A stretch of DNA of 64,000 nucleotides from Chitinophagales bacterium (GTDB taxonomy: Bacteria; Bacteroidota; Bacteroidia; Chitinophagales; UBA8649): positions 138,655 through 202,654 of the forward strand of contig JACJYT010000003.1 of assembly GCA_020635975.1 (NCBI GenBank), written 5' to 3'. The notes below the pieces were generated by a model. It was given only the letters and a program-made list of their open reading frames with translations. It ran no database searches and was not told where the DNA came from. A program made the position numbers and the translations under genes. Below, in pieces: positions 7,965 to 38,449 of the stretch (position 1 is the first letter of the stretch; every line of letters starts with the position of its first letter).

Positions 7965-7965
7965 A

Positions 7966-14886: not shown

Positions 14887-16386
14887 CTAACGAATTAACT
14901 TAATTTTTTCAACTATATCAAAAGATTGTCCGTCCTTGCCGCTAGCTTTTAAATGGAGTAGGAAAATACCACTGGCTAAATCTTTGTTTTTAAATTTCCC
15001 ATCCCAAGAATCTAAACTACTTCTTCCAATAAAAATTTCTTCGCCCCATTGACTGTAAATCTTGTATTCTAAGTCATTTATATCTCTAGTATAGACTTTG
15101 TAAAGATCATTTTGACCATCCTTATTGGGAGTAAAAGCCGTTGGAACATTTACCAGAGAGGAGTATATTCTATTTAATTGAAAGCTTAAGTTACTTGTAC
15201 AAGAATTGCTTAGGTCGCTTATAAGAAAGTAATAAGTTCCCTCATATTCAGCAAAAAGTTCTTCAGCTAAACAAGGAGCAAGACAAGTATCTCCATTAGG
15301 ATAAACAAGACTATAAGAAAAGGGATTGGTACCAATAATATCAAAAGTATAGGATTCTCCTGGATAAAGCTCTACGGAGTTTTGATAAAGACTAAAATTG
15401 CTTTTTGATATTTTATAGTATCGTTGAACTATGGAATCGCATAGGAAAGCATTTGGATTGGCAACTGGAATTTCTAGTAAGGTATCTTCATAAATCCAAA
15501 ATCCAAATTGAAATATGGAATCGCAACGCTCAATTGTATCGCTTCCAAAGCTTGGGGCTACCACTTCAAAAGTGAGACTTGAATCTATTGCACCCAAACA
15601 AGAATTTGGGTCGATTACGGTATAGCTAATGGTATAGTTACCCAATTTCCCTTGGGGATTAAAAAAGTTGGTATTTTCAATATCTCCTGACCAAGTTCCA
15701 CCTGACGTAGCATTGGCACTAAGAAAGTTGTTTAGGTTTAAAGGAGCTAGGTTATTACAAATTTTGCTAGGAAAGGTCCATGAAGCATTCAATCCATTAA
15801 AGATGGCATTACAGCCTGTATTGTAATAACTTGCTTGACCAGTTTCGTCATAATAGATGGCTGCTCCATCTCCACCAATAAGATCCGTAGGTAAATAGGA
15901 AACGGCTTGAACGCTCGTACAAGATGCATCCGAATAGCTTACTTGCAAGGTCCGAATGGAGGATGCTAAATTGCTGAAATGTCCGGAAGTATTTCCAGCA
16001 CATTGATAAGCAATATAGATAGTATCGGATAGACCTTCAAAAGAATTGGCATTAATAAGCATATTGGTAGAGCTTACAATTAAAAGTTTTTCTCCAGCTG
16101 GAACGATACCATTTGGTGCTTCAATCAAAAGTCCACAGCTCGATACTATGGTTTGATTTAGTGCTGCAGTTAGTTGGGCATCTGGGCACCATCCTAAGAA
16201 ATTATTGTTTGGCCAATCAAAAACTAGGTTGTTTAAATTTAAATCGGTATTTACTCGCAAGCTTACCATTTCATTTTCTCCTTCTGGATCTCCGCATGCA
16301 TCTGCTAAGATGCTTTCAACGCTAAAACATTGAGCAAAAACTCTGCCTAGAAAGAAGAAAGAAAAAAGTAAAAGAAAACTTCTCAT
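14887..16386 (-). CDS. Secreted protein with a type-B T9SS C-terminal sorting domain (gliding-motility-associated CTD)
   Basis: Signal peptide MRSFLLLFSFFFLGRVFAQ. C-terminus VPTAFTPNKDGQNDLYKVY...YSQWGEEIF...WDGKFKNKDLASGIFLLHLKASGKDGQSFDIVEKIKLIR. Confidence 0.8.
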   Translation of the reverse strand: MRSFLLLFSFFFLGRVFAQCFSVESILADACGDPEGENEMVSLRVNTDLNLNNLVFDWPNNNFLGWCPDAQLTAALNQTIVSSCGLLIEAPNGIVPAGEKLLIVSSTNMLINANSFEGLSDTIYIAYQCAGNTSGHFSNLASSIRTLQVSYSDASCTSVQAVSYLPTDLIGGDGAAIYYDETGQASYYNTGCNAIFNGLNASWTFPSKICNNLAPLNLNNFLSANATSGGTWSGDIENTNFFNPQGKLGNYTISYTVIDPNSCLGAIDSSLTFEVVAPSFGSDTIERCDSIFQFGFWIYEDTLLEIPVANPNAFLCDSIVQRYYKISKSNFSLYQNSVELYPGESYTFDIIGTNPFSYSLVYPNGDTCLAPCLAEELFAEYEGTYYFLISDLSNSCTSNLSFQLNRIYSSLVNVPTAFTPNKDGQNDLYKVYTRDINDLEYKIYSQWGEEIFIGRSSLDSWDGKFKNKDLASGIFLLHLKASGKDGQSFDIVEKIKLIR

Positions 16387-16428: not shown

Positions 16429-17457
16429 TTAGAATTTAGGGCAATTTAGATTTTCTCTATATCTACTTTTAGAGCTTGCTATCGTATAGATAAGGTATAA
16501 TTCAGGTCCACCCATAAAGTTGTGGGCATTTCTCAAATCTGAAGTAGTAATATCGTAGGCAAATCCGAAGTCAAAACTTTGGTATTCTGCTCTTATTCCT
16601 AAGATGAAGGCATCGCTTCCAAATTTATTCGCTTCGTAGGCAGAGAGTCTATACTGTCCGCCGGCATAGAGTGCAAAGTTCTTTCTTTCATTCAACATCA
16701 TCTTCACATAGGAGCCAAAATCTAATTCGGCGTGTGGACCTTGTTTTTGGAAAAGTAGGATAGGGATGATAGAGATTACGTCGTTTTTCAGATTAATTTT
16801 CGCGCTAAAATTAGCACTATATTTTCTGTAGAGGATGTCTTCATTGTTGTTACCAAAACTTACATTGGGTTGGGCTATATGAGATATTGCAAAGCCCGCA
16901 CTAACAGAATGTCTCTTATTAATGTTGGTGAAATAGTTAATTCCTGCACCAAAGTCTACAAAGGAAGTATTGTTATAATTGGCAAAGTCTATTGGGTCGG
17001 TATTATCGTTAATTTCAAATAGATTGCCATAAATCAAATTTTGTAGGTTAATTTGTTTGTTGTAGTACGCAGCTTGCATACCAAAACCTATATAATGTTT
17101 AACCTTCCTACCACCAAATTGTTGGTTGTAAGCTAAATTTAGATTGACCCCAGTATTCTTAAACTCACCTTCACCTTCTACATCTTGATAAAAGCCTAGT
17201 CCAGCACCTAGAAAATTTCCTTTTAGTTTGTTTCTAAACAAATTAGCATCGGCTGAAACAGCATAGGTAGCAAAGGTGGTGTATTTAAACCATTGGTTTC
17301 TATAGTTGGCGGCAAAGCGTATATTATCATCGAAAACTCCTGTTAGCGCAGGGTTTAAATTTAATGGTGATGCCCAATATTGTGAAAAATGGAAATCTTG
17401 AGCAAAAGCCAAACTCGAAAGGAGCAAGATATTTAGTGTTAGCAGCAATTTTTTCAT
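16429..17457 (-). CDS. PorP/SprF-family type IX secretion system outer-membrane protein
   Basis: MKKLLLTLNILLLSSLAFAQDFHFSQYWASPLNLNPALTG (the PorP/SprF N-terminal signature), ~340 aa with a beta-barrel-like pattern. It starts 9 nt after the giant adhesin stop. Confidence 0.85.
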   Translation of the reverse strand: MKKLLLTLNILLLSSLAFAQDFHFSQYWASPLNLNPALTGVFDDNIRFAANYRNQWFKYTTFATYAVSADANLFRNKLKGNFLGAGLGFYQDVEGEGEFKNTGVNLNLAYNQQFGGRKVKHYIGFGMQAAYYNKQINLQNLIYGNLFEINDNTDPIDFANYNNTSFVDFGAGINYFTNINKRHSVSAGFAISHIAQPNVSFGNNNEDILYRKYSANFSAKINLKNDVISIIPILLFQKQGPHAELDFGSYVKMMLNERKNFALYAGGQYRLSAYEANKFGSDAFILGIRAEYQSFDFGFAYDITTSDLRNAHNFMGGPELYLIYTIASSKSRYRENLNCPKF

Positions 17458-17466: not shown

Positions 17467-20400
17467 TTATCTAACTAGTTTAATGTTTTGTGTGATTTCA
17501 AATTTCTGTCCATCTATACCAACCGCTTGAATAACGGCTATGTAGATGCCACTTTCAACAGGAAGGTTTTTAAAGATTCCATCCCAACCATTTTCTAGAA
17601 CGGTAGTTTCATACATTTTACCTCCCCAACGATCAAAGATTTCGAGTTTATAGCTGCTAATATCCTTACCATAAGATCTGTAAATATCGTTTTGACCGTC
17701 TCCGTTTGGAGTGAAAATATTAGGAACATTAAGTTCAGAGTAAAACTCTAAATTAATTACCAAAGTATCTCTAAATATACAGGAACTAGAAGTATCTATA
17801 ATTGTGAAGTAATAGTAATTATCGAAAGTAGTAGGATATAGAGAATAAGACCCACAATTTCCTGGGCAGCTAGCACCTATATTAGATTCATAAGAGAATA
17901 TACTGTTAATGCTTTCATTTTCGATAATGAAGTTAACGCTATCACCGGGATAAGCAATGTAGCTATCTGGACTTACAGCATAAGCTGGAGCACTTGTAAT
18001 ATTATATACTATAATACTATCGCAAGATTGAGAATTTGGAATGCTTATACTGAAATTACTTACCGGTCCATCAACCATAGTGGTATTATCTGCAAGAAGG
18101 AAAGGGAAGTCGTAAGGACAAAGTTCTAAATCTAAAGTATCTGTGCTCGAATTGCTTATTGTCAAATCAATAATGTGTATGGAATCACAAGAATTAATCG
18201 TGTTGAGATTTAGAATAATCTGTTGAGAGCTGGTATAGCTTTGACCATTAATAGTGTATGATTCACATGCACTTATACTTTCAGAGCTAGTTGCTGAAGT
18301 ATGGATGACAAGATTAAAAGCAGTAATCGAATCACAGCCATTCGTTGCTCCACCTATGATAGTATCATTGAAACTAGTTGAAGCAAAATACCAAGTTCCG
18401 AGCACTTGTATAGAGTCGCAGGCACTTAAATTTGCTTGTCCTTGAGCTGTAGGAAGCAAAATTACGGTGTCGTAGTGCGTTGAATCGCAGCCCAAACTTG
18501 TAAGAAGGTTACTTACATTTATTCCAACATCTGCTGGATTACAAGAAGTAGAAGCGGAAGTGGTTACTACAGAATTATTGATCGTAATATTGAAAGTAGT
18601 AATCGAATCGCAGCCATTGCTAGCACCACCAACTAGAGTATCATTAATGCTAGTTGAAGCAAAGTACCAGGTGCTTAATACTTGAGCCGAATCACATTCT
18701 GTAATCGCCACAGTGGCAGAAGCAAAAGGTGCTAAGCTCACCGTATCGTAGTGGGTTGAATCGCAGCCCAAACTTGTAAGAAGGTTGGTAACATCAATAC
18801 CTACATCAGCTGGATTGCACGAAGTAGAAGCGGAGGTGGTCACTACAGAATTATTAATCGTAATATTTAAAGTAGTAATCGAATCGCAGCCATTACTAGC
18901 CCCACCAACGAGAGTATCGTTAAAGCTGGTAGAAGCAAAATACCAAGTACCTTGAACTAAGGCAGAGTCGCAAGCTGTTAAATCGGATACTGCAAAAGCC
19001 GTTGGCAGCAAGCTCACCGTATCGTAGTGGGTAGAATCACAGCCCAAACTAGTAAGTAAGTTGCTTACATTAATACCAACATCAGCTGGATTACAAGAGG
19101 TAGAAGCAGAGCTGGTTACTACAGAATTATTGATTGTAATATTGAAAGTAGTAATCGAATCGCAGCCATTGCTAGCACCCCCAACAAGGGTATCGTTAAA
19201 GCTAGTAGAAGCATAGTACCAAGAGCTTAATATTAGAGCCGAATCACATTCGGTAATCGCTACAGTGGCAGAAGCAAAAGGTGCTAAGCTCACCGTGTCG
19301 TAGTGGGTAGAATCGCAGCCTAAACTTGTGAGTAAGTTGCTTACATTAATACCAACATCAGCAGGATTACAAGAAGTAGAAGCAGAGCTAGTCACCACAG
19401 AATTATTAATCGTAATATTGAAAGTAGTAATCGAATCGCAGCCATTGCTAGCTCCACCAACTAGTGTATCGTTAAAGCTAGTAGAAGCATAGTACCAAGA
19501 GCTTAATACTTGTGCCGAATCACATTCGGTAAGATCCACAATAGCAGAAGCAAAAGGTGCTAAGCTCACCGTGTCGTAGTGGGTAGAATCGCAACCCAAA
19601 CTTGTAAGAAGGTTGGTAACATCAATACCAACATCAGCAGGATTACAAGAAGTAGAAGCGGAGCTGGTCACTACAGAATTATTGATCGTAATATTGAAAG
19701 TAGTGATTGAATCGCAGCCATTGCTAGCTCCACCAACAAGGGTATCGATAAAGCTAGTAGTGGCAAAATACCAAGTACCTTGAACTAAAGCAGAGTCGCA
19801 AGCCGTTAAATCACTTACTGCAAAAGCTGTTGGCAGCAAGCTCACCGTGTCGTAATGAGTCGAATCACAACCAAAAGAATTGATGAAATTAAATTCGAAA
19901 ACTCCTGTATCAGCAACACTACAAGAGAAGCTAGTAGAGAAGCTAGTATCTGTTGGATTAACTGTTAGATTTAAGACAATTATAGAGTCGCAGCCTAAAA
20001 CATTTTGAAGCGTATCATAGTAAATCCCAGAAACGTTTAGATTATTTCCTCCAAAAGTATAGAAAGCATTGGAACAGATATTTTGATTTATAGAATCCAA
20101 TTCTACAGGAGGAGGGTTTATACTAGATTGGGCTAAGAATGCCGCAAATCCTGGCGTAGAGAAAATTTCAAATACAAGGGAGTTGTTGCCAGCTTGCCAA
20201 TCATTACAAAGCGATACACTAACTATACTAGAACTTGAAAAACCTCCAGAGTTAGGCGTAAAATTGCCATATTGTGATTGAGGAATGCCGTTTACGTATA
20301 TTTCTGTTATAGTATTATCGGAGAACACATCTAGATTTAAACAAAAGCTGTTTAATACACAAGCTTCACAAGGAAGGTCAAAGTTTGCTTGATAATAAAA

Positions 20401-21954
20401 GCTTTGGTCTACAGAATGAGAACCAGTGCTGTTATGAGCAATCCATGTTGCATCAGCCCATGGACTATTATAATAAACAGCAGGTGTAGAGCTCATTACT
20501 ACGGCTGGGTTATATATTCCGTTTATTGTAGTTGACGAAACGGTCCATAATAAATCATTGCTTGCTCCAGGTAGTGTACTTCCACTTCCATTAGATCCAG
20601 TATTAAATGCTGTAGAACTAGGTGGACTAAGAGTTGAGCTGTTGATGGTGATATTGAAGGTAGTGATGGAATCGCAGCCATTACTTGCTCCACCAACAAG
20701 GGTATCGTTAAAGCTAGTAGAAGCATAGTACCAAGAGCTTAATACTTGGGCTGAATCACATCCTATGATATCCACAGTAGCAGAAGCAAAAGGTGCTAAG
20801 CTTACGGTATCGTAGTGGGTAGAATCGCAACCTAAGCTTGTAAGAAGGTTCGTAACATCAATACCTACATCAGCTGGGTTACAAGAAGTAGAAGCGGAGC
20901 TGGTCACTATAGAATTATTGATGGTAATATTGAAAGTAGTGATGGAATCACAGCCATTGCTAGCTCCACCAACGAGAGTATCATTAAAGCTAGTAGAAGC
21001 ATAGTACCAAGAGCTTAATACTTGCGCCGAATCACATTCAGTAATATCCACAGTAGCAGAAGCAAAAGGTGCTAAGCTTACCGTATCGTAGTGGGTAGAA
21101 TCGCAGCCCAAACTTGTAAGCAGGTTACTTACATTAATTCCAACATCTGCTGGATTACAAGAAGTAGAGGCGGAAGTAGTCACTACAGAATTATTGATGG
21201 TAATATTGAAAGTAGTGATGGAATCACAGCCATTGCTAGCTCCACCAACGAGAGTATCATTAAAGCTAGTTGAAGCAAAGTACCAAGAGCTTAATACTTG
21301 TGCTGAATCACATTCGGTAACATCCACAATAGCAGAAGCAAAAGGCGCTAAGCTTACCGTATCGTAGTGGGTAGAATCGCAGCCCAAACTTGTAAGCAGG
21401 TTGGTAACATTAATTCCAACATCTGCTGGATTACAAGAAGTAGAGGCGGAAGTAGTCACTACAGAATTAATGATGGTAATATTGAAAGTAGTGATTGAAT
21501 CGCAGCCATTGCTAGCTCCACCAACGAGAGTATCATTAAAGCTAGTTGAAGCATAGTACCAAGAGCTTAATATTTGTGCCGAATCACATTCGGTAACATC
21601 CACAATAGCGGAAGCAAAAGGCGCTAAGCTTACCGTGTCGTAGTGGGTCGAATCACAACCCAAACTTGTAAGAAGGTTCGTAACATCAATACCTACATCA
21701 GCAGGATTACAAGAAGTAGAAGCGGAGCTGGTCACTACAGAATTATTGATCGTGATGTTGAAAGTAGTAATCGAATCACAGCCATTGCTAGCTCCACCAA
21801 CGAGAGTATCGTTAAAGCTGGTAGAAGCCATTATCAGGATTACGAAAGTAGTAGTCGAATCAGCAAGCAGGTAGTCACAGTCACTACTTGTAAAGTAATT
21901 ATTAATCGTAAGTTGTACCATGATATAGAATCGAAGTAATCGAATCGCAGCCAT
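17467..21954 (-). CDS. C-terminal fragment of the giant adhesin: 5 + 6 tandem 92-aa units, a unique central module and the type-B T9SS CTD
   Basis: 1495-aa ORF. Its N-terminal ~40 aa are corrupted repeat, so it has no genuine start. The 92-aa unit is VSLAPFASAxVDxTECDSAQVLSSWYYASTSFNDTLVGGASNGCDSITTFNITINNSVVTSSASTSCNPADVGIxVTNLLTSLGCDSTHYDT. Confidence 0.75.
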   Translation of the reverse strand: MAAIRLLRFYIMVQLTINNYFTSSDCDYLLADSTTTFVILIMASTSFNDTLVGGASNGCDSITTFNITINNSVVTSSASTSCNPADVGIDVTNLLTSLGCDSTHYDTVSLAPFASAIVDVTECDSAQILSSWYYASTSFNDTLVGGASNGCDSITTFNITIINSVVTTSASTSCNPADVGINVTNLLTSLGCDSTHYDTVSLAPFASAIVDVTECDSAQVLSSWYFASTSFNDTLVGGASNGCDSITTFNITINNSVVTTSASTSCNPADVGINVSNLLTSLGCDSTHYDTVSLAPFASATVDITECDSAQVLSSWYYASTSFNDTLVGGASNGCDSITTFNITINNSIVTSSASTSCNPADVGIDVTNLLTSLGCDSTHYDTVSLAPFASATVDIIGCDSAQVLSSWYYASTSFNDTLVGGASNGCDSITTFNITINSSTLSPPSSTAFNTGSNGSGSTLPGASNDLLWTVSSTTINGIYNPAVVMSSTPAVYYNSPWADATWIAHNSTGSHSVDQSFYYQANFDLPCEACVLNSFCLNLDVFSDNTITEIYVNGIPQSQYGNFTPNSGGFSSSSIVSVSLCNDWQAGNNSLVFEIFSTPGFAAFLAQSSINPPPVELDSINQNICSNAFYTFGGNNLNVSGIYYDTLQNVLGCDSIIVLNLTVNPTDTSFSTSFSCSVADTGVFEFNFINSFGCDSTHYDTVSLLPTAFAVSDLTACDSALVQGTWYFATTSFIDTLVGGASNGCDSITTFNITINNSVVTSSASTSCNPADVGIDVTNLLTSLGCDSTHYDTVSLAPFASAIVDLTECDSAQVLSSWYYASTSFNDTLVGGASNGCDSITTFNITINNSVVTSSASTSCNPADVGINVSNLLTSLGCDSTHYDTVSLAPFASATVAITECDSALILSSWYYASTSFNDTLVGGASNGCDSITTFNITINNSVVTSSASTSCNPADVGINVSNLLTSLGCDSTHYDTVSLLPTAFAVSDLTACDSALVQGTWYFASTSFNDTLVGGASNGCDSITTLNITINNSVVTTSASTSCNPADVGIDVTNLLTSLGCDSTHYDTVSLAPFASATVAITECDSAQVLSTWYFASTSINDTLVGGASNGCDSITTFNITINNSVVTTSASTSCNPADVGINVSNLLTSLGCDSTHYDTVILLPTAQGQANLSACDSIQVLGTWYFASTSFNDTIIGGATNGCDSITAFNLVIHTSATSSESISACESYTINGQSYTSSQQIILNLNTINSCDSIHIIDLTISNSSTDTLDLELCPYDFPFLLADNTTMVDGPVSNFSISIPNSQSCDSIIVYNITSAPAYAVSPDSYIAYPGDSVNFIIENESINSIFSYESNIGASCPGNCGSYSLYPTTFDNYYYFTIIDTSSSCIFRDTLVINLEFYSELNVPNIFTPNGDGQNDIYRSYGKDISSYKLEIFDRWGGKMYETTVLENGWDGIFKNLPVESGIYIAVIQAVGIDGQKFEITQNIKLVR
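18300..19890 (-). repeat. Tandem array of ~6 units of a 276-bp (92-codon) coding repeat (C-proximal block)
   Basis: The string ggtgctaagctcaccgt recurs at ~18727 and ~19279 (2 x 276). Six WY[FY]A[ST]TSxxDT[LI][VI]GGA[ST]NGCDSIT motifs occur in the protein. Confidence 0.85.
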
Positions 21955-22500
21955 TGCTAGCTAACCAAGAGCTACTCCAGTAGAAGCAGAGTACCATCGT
22001 AGTGGGTCGAATCACAATCAGTAACCAAACAATAGTGTAAGTAAGTTGCTTACATTTATTCCAACATCAGCAGGATTAAAGGTAGAAGTAGAAGCAGAAG
22101 TCACTACAGAATTATTGATCGTACATATTGAAAGTAGAACATCTAGAATACAAGCCATTGCTAGTATCGTTAGCTGCAGTAAATGCTGTTCTCCACCAAA
22201 TAAGAGCCCATAGAATACTTCGAATCAATCAGAATCGCAACACCGTAAAGCAGAAGCAAAAGGTGCTAAACTCACCGTATCGTAGTGGGTAGAATCACAA
22301 GCTAAACTTGTAAGTAAGTTGCTTACATTTATTCCGACATCAGCAGGATTACATGAGGTAGAAGCAGAGCTAGTCACTACAGAATTATTGATCGTAATAT
22401 TGAAAGTAGTAATCGAATCGCAGCCATTGCTAGCTCCACCAACGAGAGTATCGTTAAAGCTGATAGAAGCAAAATACCAGGTTCCTTGAACTAAGGCAGA
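20640..22500 (-). repeat. Second block of the 276-bp repeat (5 intact units, then units that degrade into the ORF-free zone)
   Basis: There are five units in the ORF from 20640 to 21840. A further near-intact unit at ~22262-22500 lies inside the non-coding gap 21955-23027. Confidence 0.8.
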
Positions 22501-23027
22501 ATCGCAAGCTATGCAGTAAAGGTGCTAAGCGGATACCATCACAAATGTCGTATCACAACCCAAACTAATGGTATCAAGGTCGTACATCAATAGAATCATC
22601 AGGGCCCAAAGTAGTAAGCAGACTTAGTCACCACAGAATTAGCATCGTAATTATTGAAAGTATTAACGAATCATGCAGCCATTACAGCTCCAGTATCGAG
22701 TACGTTAACTCTAGTAATTATATGGTTGACTAAAGGTCAATGTAAGCTGTAAATGTCATCACAAAAGAATCACAATCACTAGCTGTAGTAAAGAATCTGT
22801 TCCCAAGTTAGAAGCATCGTACATTTGTACCAACATTGAAAACAAAAGAAGCACCATTAGCGGTAGTATCACTACCCGTAAATAATTGACTCTGTCAAGT
22901 AATCGTAAGATGCAGTAAATACTTCTGTTCCACCAATTAGAAGCATCGCTATAGTTAGACCGTTACAACAAAAAAGCACCGTTACAAATCGTAGAATATC
23001 GAACACTGTAAATTAATGGTGGCAAAG

Positions 23028-25475
23028 TCAGGTAGTACTTGTTTGATGAACTGAATCACAGCCAAAGTCATTAGTGAAGTTTGTAGTAACTAATCCAGTA
23101 TCCGCTGGATTACAAGATGTAAAGAAAGAAAAAGTAGTATCAATAATAGGTCTTTCTATTACATTAACCATCACTAGAGAATCACAACCATTAGCCGCAG
23201 TAAATACTTCCGTTCCACTTAAGTTAGAAGCATCATAAGTTGTTCCATTAAAGACAAAAGAAGCGCCATTGCAAATCGTAGTATCGAACACTCCCATAAT
23301 TAATGGTGACTCTGTCACTGTAACTGTCACCAAAGAATCACAACCATTAGCTGCCGTAAAGACTTCTGTTCCACTAAGGTTAGAAGCATCATAAGTGGTA
23401 CCATTGAAAACAAAAGAAGCACCGTTACAAATCGTAGTATCGAACACTCCCGTAATTAGAGGCGATTCCGTCACAGTAACTGTCACCAAAGAATCACAAC
23501 CATTAGCTGCAGTAAAGACTTCTGTTCCACTAAGGTTAGAAGCATCATAAGTGGTACCATTGAAAACAAAAGAAGCACCGTTACAAATCGTAGTATCGAA
23601 CACTCCCGTAATTAGAGGCGATTCCGTCACAGTAACTGTCACTACTGAATCACAGCCATTAGCTGCAGTGAAAACTTCCGTTCCACTAAGGTTAGAAGCA
23701 TCGTAAGTTGTGCCATTGAAAACAAAAGAAGCGCCATTACAAATCGTAGTATCGAACACTCCCGTAATTAATGGTGACTCTGTCACGGTAACCGTCACTA
23801 CTGAATCACAGCCATTAGCTGCAGTAAATACTTCTGTTCCACTAAGGTTAGAAGCATCATAAGTTGTACCATTAAAGACAAAAGAAGCACCGTTACAAAT
23901 CGTAGTATCGAACACTCCCGTAATTAATGGTGACTCTGTCACAGTAACTGTCACTAAAGAATCACAGCCACTAGCTGCAGTGAAAACTTCTGTTCCACTT
24001 AAGTTAGAAGCATCGTAAGTTGTACCATTGAAAACAAAAGAAGCGCCATTGCAAATCGTAGTATCGAACACTCCCGTAATTAGAGGCGACTCGGTCACAG
24101 TAACTGTCACTACAGAATCACAACCATTAGCTGCAGTAAAGACTTCTGTTCCACTTAGATTAGAAGCATCGTAAGTTGTACCATTGAAAACAAAAGAAGC
24201 ACCATTACAAATCGTAGTATCGAACACTCCCGTAATTAGAGGCGATTCCGTCACTGTAACTGTCACTACTGAATCACAACCATTAGCTGCAGTAAAAACT
24301 TCTGTTCCACTAAGGTTAGAAGCATCGTATGTTGTACCATTGAAAACAAAAGAAGCACCATTACAAATCGTAGTATCGAACACTCCCGTAATTAGAGGCG
24401 ATTCCGTCACAGTAACTGTCACTACTGAATCACAACCATTCGCAGCAGTAAATACTTCTGTTCCACTTAGATTTGAAGCATCGTAAGTTGTTCCATTAAA
24501 GACAAAAGAAGCTCCATTACAAATCGTAGTATCGAACACTCCCGTAATTAGAGGCGATTCCGTCACAGTAACTGTCACTACAGAATCACAGCCACTAGCC
24601 GCAGTAAATACTTCCGTTCCACTTAGATTAGAAGCATCGTAAGTTGTACCATTGAAAACAAAAGAAGCACCATTACAAATCGTAGTATCGAACACTCCCG
24701 TAATTAATGGTGACTCGGTCACGGTAACTGTCACTACAGAATCACAACCATTAGCTGCCGTAAAGACTTCTATTCCACTAAGGTTAGAAGCATCATAAGT
24801 GGTACCATTGAAGACAAAAGAAGCACCATTACAAATCGTAGTATCGAACACACCAGTAATTAATGGTGATTCTGTCACGGTAACTGTCACTACTGAATCA
24901 CAACCATTCGCAGCAGAAAAGACTTCTGTTCCACTTAGATTTGAAGCATCGTAAGTTGTTCCATTGAAAACAAAAGAAGCACCATTACAAATTGTCGTAT
25001 CGAACACACCAGTAATTAACGGCGACTCGGTCACGGTAACCGTCACTATAGAATCACAGCCATTAGCTGCAGTAAAGACTTCTGTTCCACTTAAGTTAGA
25101 AGCATCGTAAGTGGTTCCATTGAAAACAAAAGAAGCACCGTTACAAATTGTCGTATCGAACACTCCCGTAATTAGAGGAGATTCCGTCACTGTAACCGTC
25201 ACCAAAGAATCACAGCCATTAGTTGCAGTAAATACTTCCGTTCCACTTAGATTAGAAGCATCGTATGTTGTACCATTGAAAACAAAAGAAGCACCATTAC
25301 AAATCGTTGTATCAAACACACCAGTAATTAGTGGCAACTCGGTCACGGTAACTGTCACTACTGAATCACAACCATTAGCAGCAGTAAAGACTTCTGTTCC
25401 ACTTAGATTAGAAGCATCGTATGTTGTACCATTGAAAACAAAAGAAGCACCATTACAAATCGTAGTATCGAACAC
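23028..25475 (-). CDS. Internal fragment of the giant adhesin: ~15.5 tandem 52-aa units
   Basis: 815-aa ORF made almost entirely of ITGVFDTTICNGASFVFNGTTYDASNLSGTEVFTAANGCDSVVTVTVTESPL repeats. It ends in a transition motif (FFTSCNPADTGLVTTNFTNDFGCDSV) that matches the second half of the 92-aa unit. Confidence 0.7.
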   Translation of the reverse strand: MFDTTICNGASFVFNGTTYDASNLSGTEVFTAANGCDSVVTVTVTELPLITGVFDTTICNGASFVFNGTTYDASNLSGTEVFTATNGCDSLVTVTVTESPLITGVFDTTICNGASFVFNGTTYDASNLSGTEVFTAANGCDSIVTVTVTESPLITGVFDTTICNGASFVFNGTTYDASNLSGTEVFSAANGCDSVVTVTVTESPLITGVFDTTICNGASFVFNGTTYDASNLSGIEVFTAANGCDSVVTVTVTESPLITGVFDTTICNGASFVFNGTTYDASNLSGTEVFTAASGCDSVVTVTVTESPLITGVFDTTICNGASFVFNGTTYDASNLSGTEVFTAANGCDSVVTVTVTESPLITGVFDTTICNGASFVFNGTTYDASNLSGTEVFTAANGCDSVVTVTVTESPLITGVFDTTICNGASFVFNGTTYDASNLSGTEVFTAANGCDSVVTVTVTESPLITGVFDTTICNGASFVFNGTTYDASNLSGTEVFTAASGCDSLVTVTVTESPLITGVFDTTICNGASFVFNGTTYDASNLSGTEVFTAANGCDSVVTVTVTESPLITGVFDTTICNGASFVFNGTTYDASNLSGTEVFTAANGCDSVVTVTVTESPLITGVFDTTICNGASFVFNGTTYDASNLSGTEVFTAANGCDSLVTVTVTESPLITGVFDTTICNGASFVFNGTTYDASNLSGTEVFTAANGCDSLVTVTVTESPLIMGVFDTTICNGASFVFNGTTYDASNLSGTEVFTAANGCDSLVMVNVIERPIIDTTFSFFTSCNPADTGLVTTNFTNDFGCDSVHQTSTT

Positions 25476-27145
25476 TCCCGTAATTAATGGCGATTACAAA
25501 TAGTCGTATCGTCACGGTAACTGTCACTAAAGAATCACAACCATTAGCAGCAGTAAAGACTTCTGTTCCACTTAGGTTAGAAGCATCGTAAGTTGTACCA
25601 TTGAAAACAAAAGAAGCACCATTACAAATCGTAGTATCGAACACTCCCGTAATTAGAGGCGACTCGGTCACCGTAACTGTCACTACTGAATCACAGCCAC
25701 TAGCGGCAGTAAAGACTTCTGTTCCACTTAGATTAGAAGCATCGTATGTTGTACCATTGAAAACAAAAGAAGCACCATTACAAATCGTAGTATCGAACAC
25801 TCCCGTAATTAAAAGAAGTGAGAATCACAGCCACTAGCCGCAGTAAATACTTCCGTTCCACTTAGATTAGAAGCATCGTAAGTTGTGCCATTGAAAACAA
25901 AAGAAGCTCCATTACAAATCGTAGTATCGAACACTCCCGTAATTAATGGTGACTCTGTCACGGTAACTGTCACTAAAGAATCACAGCCATTAGCTGCAGT
26001 GAAAACTTCTGTTCCACTAAGGTTAGAAGCATCGTAAGTTGTACCATTGAAAACAAAAGAAGCACCGTTACAAATTGTCGTATCGAACACTCCAGTAATT
26101 AGAGGCGACTCGGTCACCGTAACTGTCACTACAGAATCACAGCCATTAGTTGCAGTAAATACTTCCGTTCCACTTAGATTAGAAGCATCGTATGTTGTAC
26201 CATTGAAAACAAAAGAAGCACCATTACAAATCGTTGTATCAAACACACCAGTAATTAGTGGCAACTCGGTCACGGTAACTGTCACTACTGAATCACAACC
26301 ATTAGCAGCAGTAAAGACCTCTGTTCCACTTAGATTAGAAGCATCGTATGTTGTGCCATTGAAAACAAAAGAAGCTCCATTACAAATCGTAGTATCGAAC
26401 ACTCCCGTAATTAATGGTGACTCTGTCACGGTAACTGTCACTACAGAATCACAGCCATTAGCTGCAGTAAAAACTTCTGTTCCACTAAGGTTAGAAGCAT
26501 CGTAAGTTGTACCATTGAAAACAAAAGAAGCACCATTACAAATCGTAGTATCAAACACACCAGTAATTAATGGTGACTCTGTCACGGTAACTGTCACTAC
26601 TGAATCACAACCATTAGCAGCAGTGAAAGACTTCTGTTCCACTTAGATTAGAAGCATCGTAAGTTGTACCATTGAAAACAAAAGAAGCACCATTACAAAT
26701 CGTTGTATTACCAGTAATTAAGTGGCGACTCGGTCACTGTAACTGTAGAATCACAGCCATTAGCTGCAGTAAAACTTCTGTTCCACTTAGATTAGAAGCA
26801 TCATAAGTTGTACCATTAAAGACAAAAGAAAAGTTACAAATCGTAGCGTAATTAGTGGCGACTCTGTCGTCACTACTGAATCACAGCCATTAGCTGCACT
26901 TCTGTTCCACTTAAGGTTAGAAGCATCATAAGTTGTACCATTAAAGACAAAAGAAGCACCGTTACAAATCGTAGTATCGAACACTCCCGTAATTAATGGT
27001 GACTCTGTCACCGTAACTGTTACTACTGAATCACAGCCATTAGCTGCAGTGAAAACTTCTGTTCCACTTAGATTTGAAGCGTCATAAGTGGTACCATTAA
27101 AGACAAAAGAAGCACCGTTACAAATTGTCGTATCGAAAATGGAAA
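23160..27145 (-). repeat. Tandem array of ~25 near-identical 156-bp (52-codon) coding repeats
   Basis: The period was verified by hand: ccattgaaaacaaaagaagcacc recurs every 156 nt (e.g. 23401 and 23557). The units differ at only a few codons (V/L, T/S/A, N/S, S/L). Confidence 0.9.
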
Positions 27146-30100
27146 CACTAGCCGTTAAAATTGTAAGATTAACATTTATAATGGAATCACAAGCATTAGA
27201 ACCGACCAAGACCTCCGTTCCACTTGTATTAAACTCATCATAAATGCTACCATTAATAACAATGAACTCACCTGCACAAATTGCAGTATCTAGAGTGCTA
27301 ATATTTGGAGGAAAGAAAGAAACGGTTACCGTAACTGTAGAATCACAACCTGTACTGGCTAGCAATACTTCTGTTCCACTTTGATTAAATTCGTCATAAA
27401 TTGTTCCATTAAAAACAAAAAAGTCTCCGCTACAAATTGTAGTATCTAAGGTGCCAAGACTAGGAGGGAAGATGGATACATTTATCGTGATTATAGAATC
27501 ACAACCATTGCTCGCTATAAAATATTCGGTACCATTTAAATTAAATTCGTCATAAATAGTTCCATTGAAAACAAAATTGTCTCCGCTGCATATAGTAGTA
27601 TCTAAGGTAGCATTAGATGCCGGATTTACTAATAAGTTGACATTGTTAGAATAGAGAATATCTCCACATTCATCATGCATCATTACCCTAAAGTCGGAAT
27701 TATTTAAGGCGAATGGTACATTGCTTAGAACCAAAACTGAGTCGTTTGTTCCACCATAGATTGCACTATTGCTAATATTCTCATAAATGCCTAAGCCAGG
27801 GTTATAAATTTGCCATTGATAATCCTCTATGCCATTAGTAATAACATAGAAGGAAGTGTCGCCATTTTCACAAATTTGGGCATTTATTGGATGAAGGATA
27901 ATGGATCCAGACTGATCCACAAAAATCATATTTTGAGAGATTAGCGTGTCACAACTTGTATTAAAAATGAGCAGTCGAATAGAATCTTCATCTAGAGAAA
28001 ATGGAGCACCATTTACCAGTAAAAAACTTGTTTGTGTTCCTGAATAAGGATAAGTTTCAGGAATATTTTGCCAACCAGAACCTTGGTTATCATTAAATTG
28101 CCATTGATAATTTTGATTTAGAGGAGCCGAGCCAGAACCTAAGGAAAAAATACCCCATTCACATATGTTAAGATTAACTAGTCCAGGTAGTGGGGTCAAA
28201 GAATTCACTCTTAGGGTAGCGTAAGCTGTATCCATCATATTACAGGAATCACTTAATAGAACTCGAAATTGTCTTCCATCATAAGAAGCATTCGTAAAGA
28301 GAACATTTAAAGTAGGCGTTGTAACTCCTGAATAAAAGCCGCCATTAGTCACATTTTGCCAAAATGACCCGTTGAATACTTGCCATTGATAGCTTACATC
28401 AGCTCCGCTTACATCGGCGGTGAAACTTACTAATTCTCCAGCGCAAATGGTATCATCTTCTAAAGGAGTATTGAATGATATAGCACTATAAACTTCATGA
28501 TTTAAATAAAAGGAGTCTGTACGAGTACAGGCATTATTGTCAATCACCGTTATATAATACCAACCATAACACAAAGAACTTGCAGTATCTCCTGAATTTA
28601 ATCCGCTTGTTGATCTAAATAAATTACCGGTGCTATCTCTCCATTCAAAACTAAAAGGTGCAGTTCCGTTGCCTAAGGCAGCCAAACTTCCATCGCAAGA
28701 ATTTGGACAAGAAGGCAAGCTTAGAGCATTAAAAGTTGGTGCTTCACAACAGGCTACACTTGCAAACAAGGAGTACACTGGGTCGAAGGTACATGCAAGA
28801 TCCACCCACGAGCCACTCTCTCCATCAGCAGTAGTATTTACTTCCACATTTAAGGATGCAGGTGTACCGAGACTACATTCATCCACGGTAATTTCCCAAC
28901 AAAATTCCCATTCGCAACCTAGAATAAAAGGGGCATCACCAAAATTGTTTCCTGGATCTGAATCTGTTACACCCAAACAGGCTGTAGGCGCAACGCCTAT
29001 ATCATCTCCACAGATGGATTCAAAGAAAAATCCCGGGCCATAGGAAGTGCCAGATACAGCTGCTGTTATTGGACTTGAATAGTAATCCCAATATCTATCA
29101 CCCAAGAGTTGAAAAGGATCGCAACTTGCAGGAATGGATGTTGGAGTGAAGGAACTTAGGTCCCATCCTGATCCAAAAGTAGGAATTACACCATGTAACC
29201 AATTAAAGGAAGTGGCATCCCAAGTTTCTACAGTAAAACAGAATTGAACTGTTTGTCCAGCTAGGTAGGTACCGTTTATTGGTGCTGGACTAGCAACTAA
29301 AGTCGAACTAACATTACAAGGATCACAGTCGATATAACTATAAAAATTCATTTGAAAATCACCTATATCTGTAGTGTCTTCTCCACTAATTTGCAAATAA
29401 TAAGTGCTTCCCACATTAACGGCCTGAAAACTAACATTCAAATAACCTGAACCACTAGTTCCAACAGCACAGCCTCTTCCTATCATAGTCCCACAACTGC
29501 TCCCTTCATAAAGTCCTAAATTGGGAGTGTTTAATCCAATGATCTCTATATCCATAGTGTTTGACGTGGCTACAAAACTATACCAAACATCAATTGCAGG
29601 AGCCGCCATGTCGCCACTAGGTGAGCAACCTAATAAGTAGGAATACGGATCTTCAGCACTAGCTCCAATATTACTTCCACAATATCGATCGATTACCGTA
29701 GTGGTACTTGGACAAGGGGGTGGAGTACTCAAACTTCCTAAATTACATGCATTGGCACAATCGTCTGGCGGACTTACACTACAACTTGGAGTGCTTCCAG
29801 TACAGGCACCAGGAGTAATACAACTGATGGTGGCATTCCAACCCGCAAGGGTATTAGATCCATCTGAGGTAAATTGAAAAGTTAAGCAACCGCTTGGATC
29901 GGTAGAACTAATAACACCGCCACCAGGAGCATCAAAAACGGTATTACCGCAATATGCACCTAAATAAGTAGCCGAAGTGGAATTTCCATCGTAGGCTTCC
30001 AGATAATCCCAACAGGTAGTTGCGCTTGCCGTTTCTAATTCAAACTGTGTAAATGTTAGTTGTATATTTTGTCCTGGGGTACTCGGACAAATGGTCCAAA

Positions 30101-30629
30101 CAATGTTTTCGTTGTCGCTGTAGTTTCCACTAGCTCCTGGACCAGTTCCACCGGTATCAAAAAATGATCCACTACAGCCTGTAATTGCTATGGGTGTTGG
30201 ACCAGAACCTAAGACTTGACGCCATTGCAAGGTCATACAGCTTGTATTATCCAAGCAAGGAAATTCCGAAACTAAAACGTGAACATTTCCAGTAAAGGTG
30301 GCTGTCCATGTAACCGTAGATTGTGTCCCACAATCATCGTCATTCCATGCATAGAAGGTGTTATGGGCTGCATTTGCTATGGTAATATAAGTATCAAAAT
30401 CGGTGTCGCCACAAGTGGTCCATTCATAGGTTTGCCCCATCGTTACAGCACAAATTGTATAGTCGCCACCATACATACAGGTACTAATGGTGGTAAAACT
30501 AGAGGAGCTTGTTGTATTGATCCCTAAGGGCCAATTGAAATTATTATTATTGCATTGCGCATTTGCTTTTCCAACAAATAAAAAAGACAAAAGAAGGCAT
30601 GACAAGGTAGTTAGTAAGTTTTTTTTCAT
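26787..30629 (-). CDS. N-terminal fragment of the giant adhesin: signal peptide, CUB-like domain, Cys-rich region, Ig-like YQWQ modules, first repeat units
   Basis: The CUB-like block reads CSGSFFDTGGTGPGASGNYSDNENIVWTICPSTPGQNIQLTFTQFELETASATTCWDYLEAYDGNSTSATYLGAYCG. Three Ig-like modules carry YQWQ motifs. It then runs into diverged and canonical 52-aa units. The last ~50 codons of the track ORF (26787-26940) are already frame-corrupted repeat. Confidence 0.75.
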   Translation of the reverse strand: MKKNLLTTLSCLLLSFLFVGKANAQCNNNNFNWPLGINTTSSSSFTTISTCMYGGDYTICAVTMGQTYEWTTCGDTDFDTYITIANAAHNTFYAWNDDDCGTQSTVTWTATFTGNVHVLVSEFPCLDNTSCMTLQWRQVLGSGPTPIAITGCSGSFFDTGGTGPGASGNYSDNENIVWTICPSTPGQNIQLTFTQFELETASATTCWDYLEAYDGNSTSATYLGAYCGNTVFDAPGGGVISSTDPSGCLTFQFTSDGSNTLAGWNATISCITPGACTGSTPSCSVSPPDDCANACNLGSLSTPPPCPSTTTVIDRYCGSNIGASAEDPYSYLLGCSPSGDMAAPAIDVWYSFVATSNTMDIEIIGLNTPNLGLYEGSSCGTMIGRGCAVGTSGSGYLNVSFQAVNVGSTYYLQISGEDTTDIGDFQMNFYSYIDCDPCNVSSTLVASPAPINGTYLAGQTVQFCFTVETWDATSFNWLHGVIPTFGSGWDLSSFTPTSIPASCDPFQLLGDRYWDYYSSPITAAVSGTSYGPGFFFESICGDDIGVAPTACLGVTDSDPGNNFGDAPFILGCEWEFCWEITVDECSLGTPASLNVEVNTTADGESGSWVDLACTFDPVYSLFASVACCEAPTFNALSLPSCPNSCDGSLAALGNGTAPFSFEWRDSTGNLFRSTSGLNSGDTASSLCYGWYYITVIDNNACTRTDSFYLNHEVYSAISFNTPLEDDTICAGELVSFTADVSGADVSYQWQVFNGSFWQNVTNGGFYSGVTTPTLNVLFTNASYDGRQFRVLLSDSCNMMDTAYATLRVNSLTPLPGLVNLNICEWGIFSLGSGSAPLNQNYQWQFNDNQGSGWQNIPETYPYSGTQTSFLLVNGAPFSLDEDSIRLLIFNTSCDTLISQNMIFVDQSGSIILHPINAQICENGDTSFYVITNGIEDYQWQIYNPGLGIYENISNSAIYGGTNDSVLVLSNVPFALNNSDFRVMMHDECGDILYSNNVNLLVNPASNATLDTTICSGDNFVFNGTIYDEFNLNGTEYFIASNGCDSIITINVSIFPPSLGTLDTTICSGDFFVFNGTIYDEFNQSGTEVLLASTGCDSTVTVTVSFFPPNISTLDTAICAGEFIVINGSIYDEFNTSGTEVLVGSNACDSIINVNLTILTASVSIFDTTICNGASFVFNGTTYDASNLSGTEVFTAANGCDSVVTVTVTESPLITGVFDTTICNGASFVFNGTTYDASNLKWNRSAANGCDSVVTTESPLITLRFVTFLLSLMVQLMMLLI
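27146..27610 (-). repeat. Three diverged founder-like copies of the 52-aa unit
   Basis: LDTTICSGDNFVFNGTIYDEFNLNGTEYFIASNGCDSIITINVSIFPPSLGT, a second copy with ...SGDFFVFNGTIYDEFNQSGTEVLLASTGCDSTVTVTVSFFPPNIST, and a third with ...AGEFIVINGSIYDEFNTSGTEVLVGSNACDSIINVNLTILTASVS. Confidence 0.8.
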
Positions 30630-30655
30630 AGGCCGCAAAGGAAATCACCTTTCTA

Positions 30656-30823: not shown

Positions 30824-32188
30824 ATGCATAAAGTTTACAATAATATACTAGAAACTATTGGTGATACACCTATGGTTAAGCTAAATTCTATAAGCAAAGA
30901 TTTTCCTGCCGATATCTACGTAAAAATAGAATCTGTGAATCCTGGTAATTCGGTAAAAGATAGAATGGCCTTGCGCATGCTAGAAGGAGCGGAGCAAGAG
31001 GGTCGAATCAAACCTGGCGGAACTATTGTTGAAGGCACTAGTGGAAACACTGGTATGGGCTTAGCCTTAGCTGCCATAGTAAAGGGGTATAAATGTATTT
31101 TTGTTACTACAGATAAACAATCTAAAGAAAAGGCCGATATTTTGAAAGCTGTCGGAGCAGAAGTAATTGTATGTCCAACCGATGTGGAAGCATCTGACCC
31201 AAGGTCGTATTATTCGGTTTCTGCTAGAGTGGCCTCTGAAATTCCAAATTCCTTTTATGTTAACCAATACGATAATCCTTACAATAGTTTGGCGCATTAT
31301 GAACAAACAGGACCAGAAATTTGGAAGCAAACGGATGGAAAAATCACACATTTTGTAGTAGGAGTGGGAACAGGAGGAACCATTTCTGGTACAGGCAAAT
31401 ATCTAAAAGAGCAAAATCCAAGGGTGAAAATTTATGGTATAGATACCTATGGTTCGGTATTGAAAAAATACCACGAAACTAGGATTTTCGATGAGAAGGA
31501 AATTTATCCCTACATTACCGAGGGTATTGGAGAAGATATCCTTCCAAAGAATGTAGACTTTGACGTAATTGATTACTTTGAGAAGGTTACCGATAAAGAT
31601 GGTGCTGTGATGACGCGAAGACTAGCCAAAGAGGAGGGGATATTTGCAGGTTATTCTGCGGGCAGTGCTATCGCTGGAGTACTTCAAATGAAGGATAAGT
31701 TTAAGAAAGGAGATATGGTAGTGGTGCTTTTGCACGACCATGGAAGTCGTTATGTAGGTAAAATTTTTAACGATGAGTGGATGCGCGAAAGAGGTTGGTT
31801 GGATAAGGAACCTACAGCTAAAACAATAATTGAAACGAAGAAAAATAAGGGATCGATTTCTGTAGATATTAATGAAAATATTGCAAGTGTTTTCAAAATA
31901 ATGAAGGAAACCGATATTTCTCAATTTCCAGTGCTTAAAGAAGGCGAAATTGTTGGGAGTATCACAGAAAGAAATATTCTTAGTGCTTTAGTAGATGGTG
32001 CCGATGCACATACCACAAGAGTTAGTGGCGTAATGTTACAATCTTTCCCTTATGTGGGCCTAAATGAAAAGGCAAGAGATATATCTAAATTAATAAGTAA
32101 ATCCAATTCTGCGGTATTGGTAAAAGATACTGCCGGACAGACACATATCATTACAGAATATGATCTGATTGATGCCATGGCGATCTAG
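30824..32188 (+). CDS. Cystathionine beta-synthase-type PLP enzyme (cysteine synthase fold plus C-terminal CBS pair)
   Basis: PLP-lysine block NPGNSVKDR, GTSGNTGMGLA, GVGTGGTISG. The C-terminal ~120 aa carry two CBS motifs (ISQFPVLKEGEIVGSITERNIL; SAVLVKDTAGQTHIITEYDLI). Confidence 0.85.
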   Translation: MHKVYNNILETIGDTPMVKLNSISKDFPADIYVKIESVNPGNSVKDRMALRMLEGAEQEGRIKPGGTIVEGTSGNTGMGLALAAIVKGYKCIFVTTDKQSKEKADILKAVGAEVIVCPTDVEASDPRSYYSVSARVASEIPNSFYVNQYDNPYNSLAHYEQTGPEIWKQTDGKITHFVVGVGTGGTISGTGKYLKEQNPRVKIYGIDTYGSVLKKYHETRIFDEKEIYPYITEGIGEDILPKNVDFDVIDYFEKVTDKDGAVMTRRLAKEEGIFAGYSAGSAIAGVLQMKDKFKKGDMVVVLLHDHGSRYVGKIFNDEWMRERGWLDKEPTAKTIIETKKNKGSISVDINENIASVFKIMKETDISQFPVLKEGEIVGSITERNILSALVDGADAHTTRVSGVMLQSFPYVGLNEKARDISKLISKSNSAVLVKDTAGQTHIITEYDLIDAMAI

Positions 32189-38142: not shown

Positions 38143-38206
38143 CTAGAGAATTAGAAAAATAGAGAAATAGAAAATTAGAGAGTTAGTTGATTAGTTGACT
38201 AGATTT
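38143..38206. repeat. 8-bp-phased TAGA array (WTAGARAA-like units)
   Basis: ctagagaa ttagaaaa atagagaa atagaaaa ttagagag ttagttga ttagttga ctagattt. It has the same unit type as the arrays at 51.5-52.1 kb. Confidence 0.8.
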
Positions 38207-38210
38207 CTCA

Positions 38211-38240
38211 CGTCAGGGTCTCTCAAAAAGGACCCTGATG
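38211..38240. repeat. Conserved 30-nt hairpin module (copy 1)
   Basis: cgTCAGGGTCtctcaaaaagGACCCTGAtg. A near-identical copy lies at 51999-52028. Confidence 0.8.
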
Positions 38241-38343
38241 ATACGTGAAAACCAAAAATGAATTTAAGAAACGAAATTTAATTTTTATGAAGGTAGTCCG
38301 ATCTAAAAGCGAAGCGCTCTAAATTCTATTAGTCAATGAGTCT

Positions 38344-38385
38344 AAAAAAAAAGAGGGCTAGGATATACCTAGCCCTCTTTTTTTG
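38344..38385. terminator. Bidirectional intrinsic terminator between DUF2911 (+) and DUF2779 (-)
   Basis: A8, then AGAGGGCTAGG-atata-CCTAGCCCTCT (11-bp perfect stem, 38352-38378), then T6. Confidence 0.85.
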
Positions 38386-38449
38386 TCGAATAGTCGAATA
38401 GTCGACTAATCGACAAGTCGACCAATCGAATCATCCCAAAATCGACCTC
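38386..38449. repeat. 8-bp-phased TCGA array running into the 3' end of the DUF2779 gene
   Basis: TCGA occurs at 38386, 38394, 38402, 38410, 38418, 38426, (38434 degenerate) and 38442, a strict period of 8. The gene's stop is at 38431-38433. Confidence 0.8.

Follow-up and report, generated by a model that had tools for sequence, protein, structure and literature searches.

Several giant surface proteins of bacteria are built around long runs of repeated domains. The SprB/SprF system of Flavobacterium johnsoniae combines a Sec signal peptide, a very large repetitive body and a C-terminal domain (CTD) of type B with a PorP/SprF-family gene directly downstream and has no PorE-like neighbour (PMC9143113). 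Anchoring of type-B CTD cargo of the T9SS (type IX secretion system) by cognate PorP-like proteins has been described (PMC9143113). GhpA, the grappling hook protein of Aureispira, is a giant cargo of the T9SS whose stem consists of 52 Ig-like repeats, and a PorP homologue is encoded downstream (bioRxiv 10.1101/2024.01.29.577165). The 'periscope' surface proteins, with their tandem Rib or SasG-type arrays, form rods of tandem, nearly identical small beta domains. Here we describe a locus of the same general kind whose reading frame is broken four times within its repeats. We put the probability at roughly 85% that it represents one intact gene of ~4,390 codons for a secreted surface protein, corrupted by errors of a long-read or hybrid consensus.

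Organization of the locus

The analysed window is a stretch of 64,000 nt from a metagenome-assembled genome, a wastewater-type Bacteroidota bin, and matches MCB9256064.1 (H6579_02930, Chitinophagales bacterium). On its minus strand, five ORFs cover 11,970 of the 13,172 nt (91%) at positions 17467-30638:

26787-30638, minus strand, ORF 1, 1283 aa
25809-26642, minus strand, ORF 2, 277 aa
25453-25800, minus strand, ORF 3, 115 aa
23028-25475, minus strand, ORF 4, 815 aa
17467-21954, minus strand, ORF 5, 1495 aa
17467..30629, minus strand, the whole inferred gene of ~4,390 codons, from the ORF layout and the single-polypeptide homologue P0009

Judging from its sequence, the locus is one real gene, not five, as a preliminary description of this DNA had proposed. 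A signal peptide, a type-B CTD and a downstream PorP/SprF gene each occur once, the repeat units run on across the breaks, and the homologue P0009 (1493 aa) carries the same N-terminal module and a type-B CTD in one polypeptide. Translation truly starts from the ATG at 30629, so that the protein begins with MKKNLLTTLSCLLLSFLFVGKANA followed by QC. The inferred order of parts is a signal peptide, an N-terminal module, the 52-aa array, a transition, a 92-aa array, a central domain, a second 92-aa array and a C-terminal region with the type-B CTD:

30558..30629, minus strand, predicted Sec signal peptide MKKNLLTTLSCLLLSFLFVGKANA, judged by eye from the sequence
29829..30128, minus strand, CUB domain (PF00431, 47.3 bits against a cutoff of 21.4)
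23200..27605, minus strand, 156-nt (52-aa) array of ~29 units
23034..23195, minus strand, unique transition from the 52-aa to the 92-aa arrays, nearly identical in the window and in the sister bin L003 (see below)
20642..21954, minus strand, clean part of the first 276-nt array
20080..20640, minus strand, central non-repeat domain without a family match
18470..19775, minus strand, second 276-nt array, 4.7 units
17524..17730, minus strand, T9SS type-B C-terminal sorting domain, with profile matches above cutoffs
16429..17457, minus strand, cognate PorP/SprF-family outer-membrane protein gene (TIGR03519, 181.6 bits against a cutoff of 90.55)

The CUB region also matches neuropilin and PCPE CUB domains among PDB chains (E 1e-10). 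The sorting domain lies at residues 1409-1477 of the last ORF and nowhere else among the five pieces (PF13585, 54.9 bits against 27; TIGR04131, 47.4 against 35; curated cutoffs). Thus, the signal peptide is found solely at the 30.6 kb end and the sorting domain solely at the 17.5 kb end, just as first noted.

Five independent, separately expressed genes would be hardly credible. The public record does have separate protein entries for, at least, the first and the last piece, but the inner pieces begin within repeat units at GTG or TTG and have neither a signal peptide nor a CTD, and the N-terminal piece, as a protein of T9SS type, would lack a sorting domain. A promoter and terminator scan of the locus showed no enrichment, with 40 promoter-like sites against 51 expected under a sigma-70 model that is ill-suited to Bacteroidota.

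The PorP/SprF gene starts 9 nt downstream of the adhesin gene and is followed by another gene for a type-B CTD protein and then by an acyltransferase gene; no PorE-like gene was found among these next genes. The sequencing runs SRR12358675 and SRR12358676 contain a PorP/SprF gene identical to this one. The window also contains a second giant type-B-CTD gene (42305-49999) with its own PorP/SprF gene. It has no breaks and no high-identity DNA repeats and serves as an internal control.

The closest homologues, P0002 and P0003 (47-50% identity), are located at contig ends, so that they provide no intact orthologue for comparison. When species-representative genomes were searched with the 1000 N-terminal residues, no orthologue appeared; a single distant locus matched, at 37% identity over 60 residues. 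An exact 29-mer of the conserved transition piece had 0 matches in JGI metagenome contigs, and a protein search with six canonical units gave a best match of ~61-64% identity and no near-identical short-read fragments. Exact-protein look-ups of P0001 and of the ORFs at 25453-25800 and 25809-26642 returned no record, which is uninformative on short-read support.

Repeat arrays and selection

In the 156-nt array, units 1-4 are naturally divergent and 18 units are free of indels. Modelling of three 52-aa units with AF2 gave an all-beta structure (pLDDT 95.5). The 276-nt (92-aa) unit forms the arrays at 22720-20642 and 19775-18470.

The units neighbouring the breaks had been described as ~95-100% identical. 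This holds for the protein (~97% among clean 156-nt units) but not for the DNA, which is 85-97% (mean 90%) identical. Clean units differ from the consensus in 177 synonymous and 14 nonsynonymous codons. At least 18 tandem 52-aa modules have thus kept ~97% protein identity while their DNA drifted to ~90%, nearly all of it synonymously. Near-uniform protein with synonymous DNA drift points to strong selection on every module and suggests that the gene was functional until very recently and perhaps still is.

Distribution and spectrum of the lesions

In this assembly the frame from the signal peptide to the CTD is interrupted four times. Every break sits within the 156-nt or the 276-nt tandem array, in agreement with the preliminary description, and the ~7.7 kb of unique coding sequence of the gene is free of lesions:

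26625..26914, minus strand, lesion cluster 1, 13 gap events (each 1-13 nt long) with a net change of -42 nt
25813..25820, minus strand, lesion 2a, net -22 nt, with 7 garbled nt left over
25494..25509, minus strand, lesion 2b, a 16-nt repeat-derived insert ATACGACTATTTGTAA in place of GAG, net +13 nt
21955..23033, minus strand, lesion zone 3, two degraded 156-type units, then degraded 276-type units

The stop that ends ORF 1 is located inside lesion cluster 1. Lesions 2a and 2b sum to -9 nt and restore the frame, a 1-in-3 coincidence. In zone 3, the two degraded 156-type units (23015-22740) are positioned past the 156-to-276 transition, and within the 725 aligned nt of the stretch at 22720-21955 (22.7-22.0 kb) there are 54 gap events, mostly of 1-2 nt, or 7% per base. 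Across the lesion-bearing units, 42 of the 50 mismatches fall at third codon positions.

These data refine what had been read from the sequence at first sight. The indel-dense mosaics are evident in cluster 1 and at 22720-21955, and the ~17-nt piece seen as re-inserted at 25480-25510 corresponds to the insert of lesion 2b. A loss at ~25805-25825 is confirmed in the assembled sequence, its size being a net 22 nt rather than the ~30 nt originally given. The ORFs were also called contiguous, which is true of the first three junctions but not of the fourth (21955-23027), a stretch of 1,073 nt with nothing longer than ORFs of 37-50 aa.

Short direct repeats (for example GTGAC or TACG) border some of the larger deletions (5-13 nt), and deletions of this size could also arise in vivo. 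Long exact matches between units that end at lesion edges were discarded as evidence, as any indel necessarily ends an exact match.

Comparison with independent assemblies

The same locus is present in L003 (GCA_041392415.1), a bin obtained independently from a strain with ~98% identity. The flanks of the locus differ at 161 of 7,397 positions, with no indels, and the unique sequence towards the N- and C-terminal ends of the gene (about 3.7 kb and 3 kb), taken in steps of 200 nt, is for the most part 100% identical in L003. No small indels separate the two assemblies in about 14 kb of aligned non-repeat sequence.

The arrays present a different picture. In L003, the N-terminal ORF (1389 aa) runs unbroken through the place of lesion cluster 1, and the gene splits into 12 mini-ORFs over 5249-9997 of the L003 locus, where the window is clean. 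This comparison with a related genome, which the preliminary description had recommended, thus shows each assembly to be broken in its own places. L003 is noisier than the window across the remainder of the array, with one stretch of 2,730 nt holding 94 gap events and another of 1,528 nt holding 32, and is structured differently at zone 3. The clean L003 counterpart directly contradicts lesion cluster 1 only. Unit-by-unit mapping of the L003 array onto that of the window gave no collinear one-to-one match (best 0.88-0.96 identity). Since the synonymous unit signatures are not collinear, lesions 2a and 2b and zone 3 lack a position-by-position check against L003, and a combined repaired array sequence could not be derived from the two assemblies.

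The suggestion that the arrays had collapsed and that the true copy numbers were larger finds no support in the total lengths, which agree within 60 nt (13,172 nt in the window and 13,112 nt in L003). The length is divided differently between the two arrays, the 156-to-276 transition being placed about 580 nt apart. Apparent copies number about 28-30 in the window and about 24 in L003 for the 52-aa module, and about 7.5 and about 11 for the 92-aa module.

None of the short-read contigs L004-L006 of the same organism (99.8-99.9% identity) extends past the array edge at 18508, which is where L004 stops.

Origin of the breaks

From gene anatomy, the error spectrum, the pattern of selection and the disagreement of two independent assemblies, we infer that the metagenome assembly introduced the four interruptions as sequence errors. 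The lesions are confined to near-identical repeats, with clean unique sequence around them, they are dominated by indels, and the independent assembly is broken elsewhere. The route to such errors would presumably be as follows. The arrays may have been spannable by long reads only, and a low-accuracy long-read consensus or mis-polished sequence could have been left where short reads were not uniquely placeable or the graph path was unclean. Dense indels of 1-13 nt and one local structural mis-join beside pristine units would be the outcome. For data of this type, residual errors are acknowledged to persist once short reads have been used for polishing (PMC8518188). The frameshift-riddled repeats of other long-read and hybrid metagenome assemblies resemble those seen here in that indel errors are limited to sequence beyond the reach of short-read polishing and differ between assemblies.

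Genuine recent pseudogenization or recombinational scrambling in this strain, with real and inactivating indels and misplaced 156-type units, appears improbable. Surface adhesins are frequently lost or varied, some of the deletions lie between direct repeats (GTGAC...GTGAC, TACG...TACG) as slippage would leave them, and the structure at 23015-22740 is unlike that of the sister strain. On the other hand, the lesions occur in the arrays alone and spare the unique coding sequence (about 7.7 kb, with 100% identity between the two strains), a gap event every 13 nt combined with third-position-biased substitutions is not an evolutionary spectrum, recombination between repeats should yield changes of unit size (156 or 276 nt) rather than indels of 1-2 nt, and L003 shows a different set of lesions. 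Relaxed selection and gene-wide lesions, as expected of a pseudogene, are not seen (177 synonymous against 14 nonsynonymous differences; 42/50 at third positions). Very unlikely, too, is a variable-length, rapidly recombining T9SS surface filament whose array make-up differs between ~98%-identical strains and which was recently switched off here by repeat-associated scrambling. The initial preference for misassembly over decay or real scrambling is thus upheld by the breaks lying elsewhere in L003, by the dominance of indels and by substitutions that are still coding-like.

A possible but doubtful variant is that the assembly merged co-existing strains whose arrays differed in repeat copy number or unit order, and that the consensus failed where reads of several haplotypes piled up. 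The source is a metagenome bin, in which array variants are plausible, and the two assemblies differ in their unit signatures and place the transition ~580 nt apart. Raw long-read error is the better match for the spectrum of zone 3, where indels are mostly of 1-2 nt and amount to 7% per base, although telling haplotype merging from plain long-read consensus error takes the reads themselves.

The locus is most likely intact in the organism. The ~4,390-residue protein would be exported by Sec and then through the T9SS via its type-B CTD, and its anchor on the outer membrane would be the PorP/SprF-family protein whose gene lies 9 nt downstream. Tandem all-beta modules, about 29 of 52 aa and about 12 of 92 aa, would make up its rod. 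In long-read and hybrid bins, the giant repeat-rich surface-protein genes of Bacteroidota are the likeliest to appear as several 'hypothetical proteins' or to be taken for pseudogenes, which skews pseudogene counts, catalogues of T9SS cargo and protein-size statistics.

Relation to known surface proteins

The gene beneath the breaks is, by its predicted architecture, an ordinary new member of the class of giant type-B-CTD adhesins. It shares with SprB all of the features listed at the outset. Unlike SprB, it has an N-terminal CUB domain and its own repeat modules of 52 and 92 aa, which belong to no Pfam family; a profile search of every piece (E <= 0.01) found no match to the SprB repeats (PF13573), which some homologues of the N-terminal module do have. 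The best structural matches of the modelled 52-aa modules are stem and neck fragments of GhpA (Foldseek E 1e-4, probability 1.0), but with TM scores of 0.30-0.34 and 18-20% identity, and no GhpA entry appeared in a phmmer search of PDB chains. In contrast to GhpA, the adhesin gene is followed by PorP/SprF without a subsequent PorE-like gene. Rib tandems also appear among the structural matches of the 52-aa modules. As in the 'periscope' proteins, the rod would be made of tandem small beta domains, and the apparent copy number differs between two strains, a difference that may itself be an assembly error. Unlike in those proteins, the units are only ~90% identical as DNA, and their differences are almost all synonymous.

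Gene organization

An ORF scan places five minus-strand open reading frames at 17467-30638, followed by a PorP/SprF-family gene:

26787-30638, minus, N-terminal ORF, 1283 aa
25809-26642, minus, inner ORF, 277 aa
25453-25800, minus, inner ORF, 115 aa
23028-25475, minus, inner ORF, 815 aa
17467-21954, minus, last ORF, 1495 aa
16429-17457, minus, PorP/SprF-family gene, 9 nt downstream of the last ORF (TIGR03519, 181.6 bits against 90.55)

The five ORFs cover 11,970 of the 13,172 nt, in frames 0, 0, 2, 0 and, after a 1,073-nt stretch that holds nothing longer than ORFs of 37-50 aa, 2. The ATG at 30629 is the true start and opens a classic signal peptide (MKKNLLTTLSCLLLSFLFVGKANA, followed by QC) and a CUB domain (PF00431, 47.3 bits), the latter backed by PDB chains of neuropilin and PCPE CUB. 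The sole sorting signal is a type-B T9SS C-terminal domain (CTD) in the last ORF (aa 1409-1477; PF13585, 54.9 bits against a cutoff of 27; TIGR04131, 47.4 against 35). The inner ORFs start at GTG or TTG codons inside repeat units and lack both signal peptide and CTD. A 1493-aa homologue (P0009) aligns with the first 815 residues of the N-terminal ORF and, through its own C-terminal end, with the CTD of the last ORF, so that both ends normally belong to one polypeptide, and the pieces are rightly read as a single gene. Promoter-like sites showed no enrichment under the model used, which suits Bacteroidota poorly.

Immediately downstream of the PorP/SprF gene, a second protein, small at 499 aa (14887-16386, minus), also has a type-B CTD, which places that gene between two type-B cargos. 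Outside the organism itself, the N-terminal module has its nearest homologues in ENA ERZ1699363 and Logan ERR4592243 (47-50% identity), and both are at contig ends; in the latter, a PorP/SprF gene is upstream of the big gene, not downstream.

Repeat arrays and lesions

The arrays and the lesions within them are as follows:

27605-23200, minus, 156-nt (52-aa) unit, ~29 copies
22720-20642, minus, 276-nt (92-aa) unit, first array
19775-18470, minus, 276-nt (92-aa) unit, second array
26625-26914, minus, cluster 1: 13 gap events of 1-13 nt each, net -42 nt
25813-25820, minus, lesion 2a: net loss of 22 nt
25494-25509, minus, lesion 2b: GAG replaced by a 16-nt repeat-like insert, net +13 nt
21955-23033, minus, zone 3: begins right after a unique transition piece (23034-23195)

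Eighteen 156-nt units, all within 23465-26576, are free of indels, with mean identities of 90% (DNA) and 97% (protein). Their 194 base changes relative to the consensus include 170 at third codon positions, and the codon differences divide into 177 synonymous and 14 nonsynonymous, which puts every 52-aa module under strong purifying selection. Synonymous divergence this pure among adjacent modules (23465-26576) is unusual. The arrays do not consist of young copies with identical DNA; the 95-100% identity given for clean units in the preliminary description does not hold at the DNA level, where it is 85-97%.

Lesions 2a and 2b sum to -9 nt. Zone 3 comprises first a pair of degraded 156-type units (23015-22740) and next a run of 276-type units that are likewise degraded; it shows 54 gap events in 725 aligned nt, mostly of 1-2 nt. 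Mismatches fall at third codon positions in 42 of 50 cases in the lesion-bearing 156-nt units and in 59 of 96 in zone 3, and this excess makes the sequence beneath the lesions look like ordinary selected coding units with indels superimposed. Apart from small corrections, repeats and lesions are as first described; a piece is indeed missing at lesion 2a, although it measures 22 nt rather than ~30.

Comparison with a sister strain

A second bin, from a different strain, shares this locus and its neighbouring genes (L003; GCA_041392415.1, contig JAWKMD010000038.1). Its downstream flank differs from the window by 161 substitutions and 0 indels over 7,397 nt. Inside the gene, the majority of 200-nt segments are 100% identical in the unique ~3.7 kb at the N-terminal end and the unique ~3 kb at the C-terminal end, and exact matches extend over 2,228 and 1,921 nt. 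Outside the repeats, ~14 kb could be aligned across both bins, and small indels were absent from it.

The break positions differ between the assemblies. Both are identical as far as 26941 (4774 in L003), and the first ORF of L003 (1389 aa) has ~3.4 canonical units (4713-5248) without any indel where the window has cluster 1, the only lesion directly contradicted by clean homologous sequence. L003 is split into 12 mini-ORFs at 5249-9997, with 94 gap events in 2,730 nt and 32 in 1,528 nt, and the region of 15 perfect units in the window falls within this broken part. The transition piece at the array junction is common to both, with the window placing it ~580 nt farther from the start codon, and is followed by immediate divergence: next in L003 comes a divergent leading 276-type unit missing from the window, and next in the window come two degraded 156-type units missing from L003. 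Synonymous signatures of array units gave no one-to-one match between the two.

The differing breaks and the indel-dense lesions bear out the suspicion of misassembly, and we put the probability that the shattering of the gene is an assembly artefact at about 0.85. Collapse of the arrays had also been suggested; total collapse is unlikely because the locus lengths (13,112 nt in L003, 13,172 nt in the window) agree within 60 nt.

L003 also lacks (at ~545) 52 nt of the window (31167-31218) inside a cystathionine-beta-synthase-like gene (30824-32188, 454 aa, PALP+CBS) that is intact in the window and split in L003; this may be a genuine deletion or one more assembly error.

Probable origin of the lesions

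The N-terminal ORF is 100% identical to MCB9256064.1, 'MAG: hypothetical protein H6579_02930 [Chitinophagales bacterium]', on a 463,433-bp contig; by this label the window comes from a metagenome-assembled genome. Three contigs of this organism built from short reads (Logan SRR12358675, Logan SRR12358676 and GCA_020436235.1) are 99.8-99.9% identical and gapless; the longest (L004) gets no further than the edge of the second 276-nt array (18508), and the remaining two end before it (18202 and 18124). Long reads must have taken the 463-kb contig across ~7 kb of arrays. One indel event per 13 nt is impossible from a short-read graph and is near raw long-read error. Unicycler uses long-read consensus for bridges where the short-read graph offers no fitting path, and such a fallback would leave pristine stretches alternating with indel-rich ones. 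The consecutive runs SRR12358675/SRR12358676 and the locus-tag era point to a possible origin in the Hong Kong Shatin activated-sludge study, in which Nanopore reads (mean accuracy 86.7%) were assembled with Flye and bins were each re-assembled by Unicycler with Illumina reads (PMC8518188 and supplement).

As an internal control, the other giant type-B-CTD gene (42305-49999, minus, 2564 aa; six PKD stretches, Ig_7 and CHU_C) is unbroken and has no high-identity DNA tandem repeats. It has its own PorP/SprF gene (41217-42308, minus); the lowest GC in the window (40001-42000, 0.288 versus ~0.36 elsewhere) lies upstream of and across the latter. Intergenic 8-nt tandem-repeat runs (TAGAGAAT / AAATTAGA) at 51526-52070 and 38144-38431 flank a ~110-nt module in two copies (51590-51700 and 51885-51990), and a hairpin, CAGGGTCTCTCAAA.AGGACCCTGAT, is common to 38216 and 52003; together these look like a small dispersed intergenic repeat element.

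Predicted structure and relation to known adhesins

Three 52-aa units, modelled with AlphaFold2 from 60 homologues, gave a confident all-beta fold (pLDDT 95.5); every unit has a conserved Cys...GCDS pair. The top structural matches were to the Ig-like stem and neck repeats of the grappling-hook protein GhpA from Aureispira (E 1e-4, probability 1.0, TM 0.30-0.34), to titin Ig tandems and to Rib tandems; there was no sequence-level match to GhpA. SprB (PMC9143113) and GhpA (bioRxiv 10.1101/2024.01.29.577165) are likewise giant cargos of the T9SS whose genes have a PorP-like gene downstream; by analogy, the protein is probably a long surface filament or adhesin anchored via its cognate PorP/SprF protein. 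With PF13573 repeats absent, it is no SprB orthologue, and whereas GhpA has a PorE partner, the present locus is without one. Though very large, the gene is a routine representative of the type-B-CTD adhesins.
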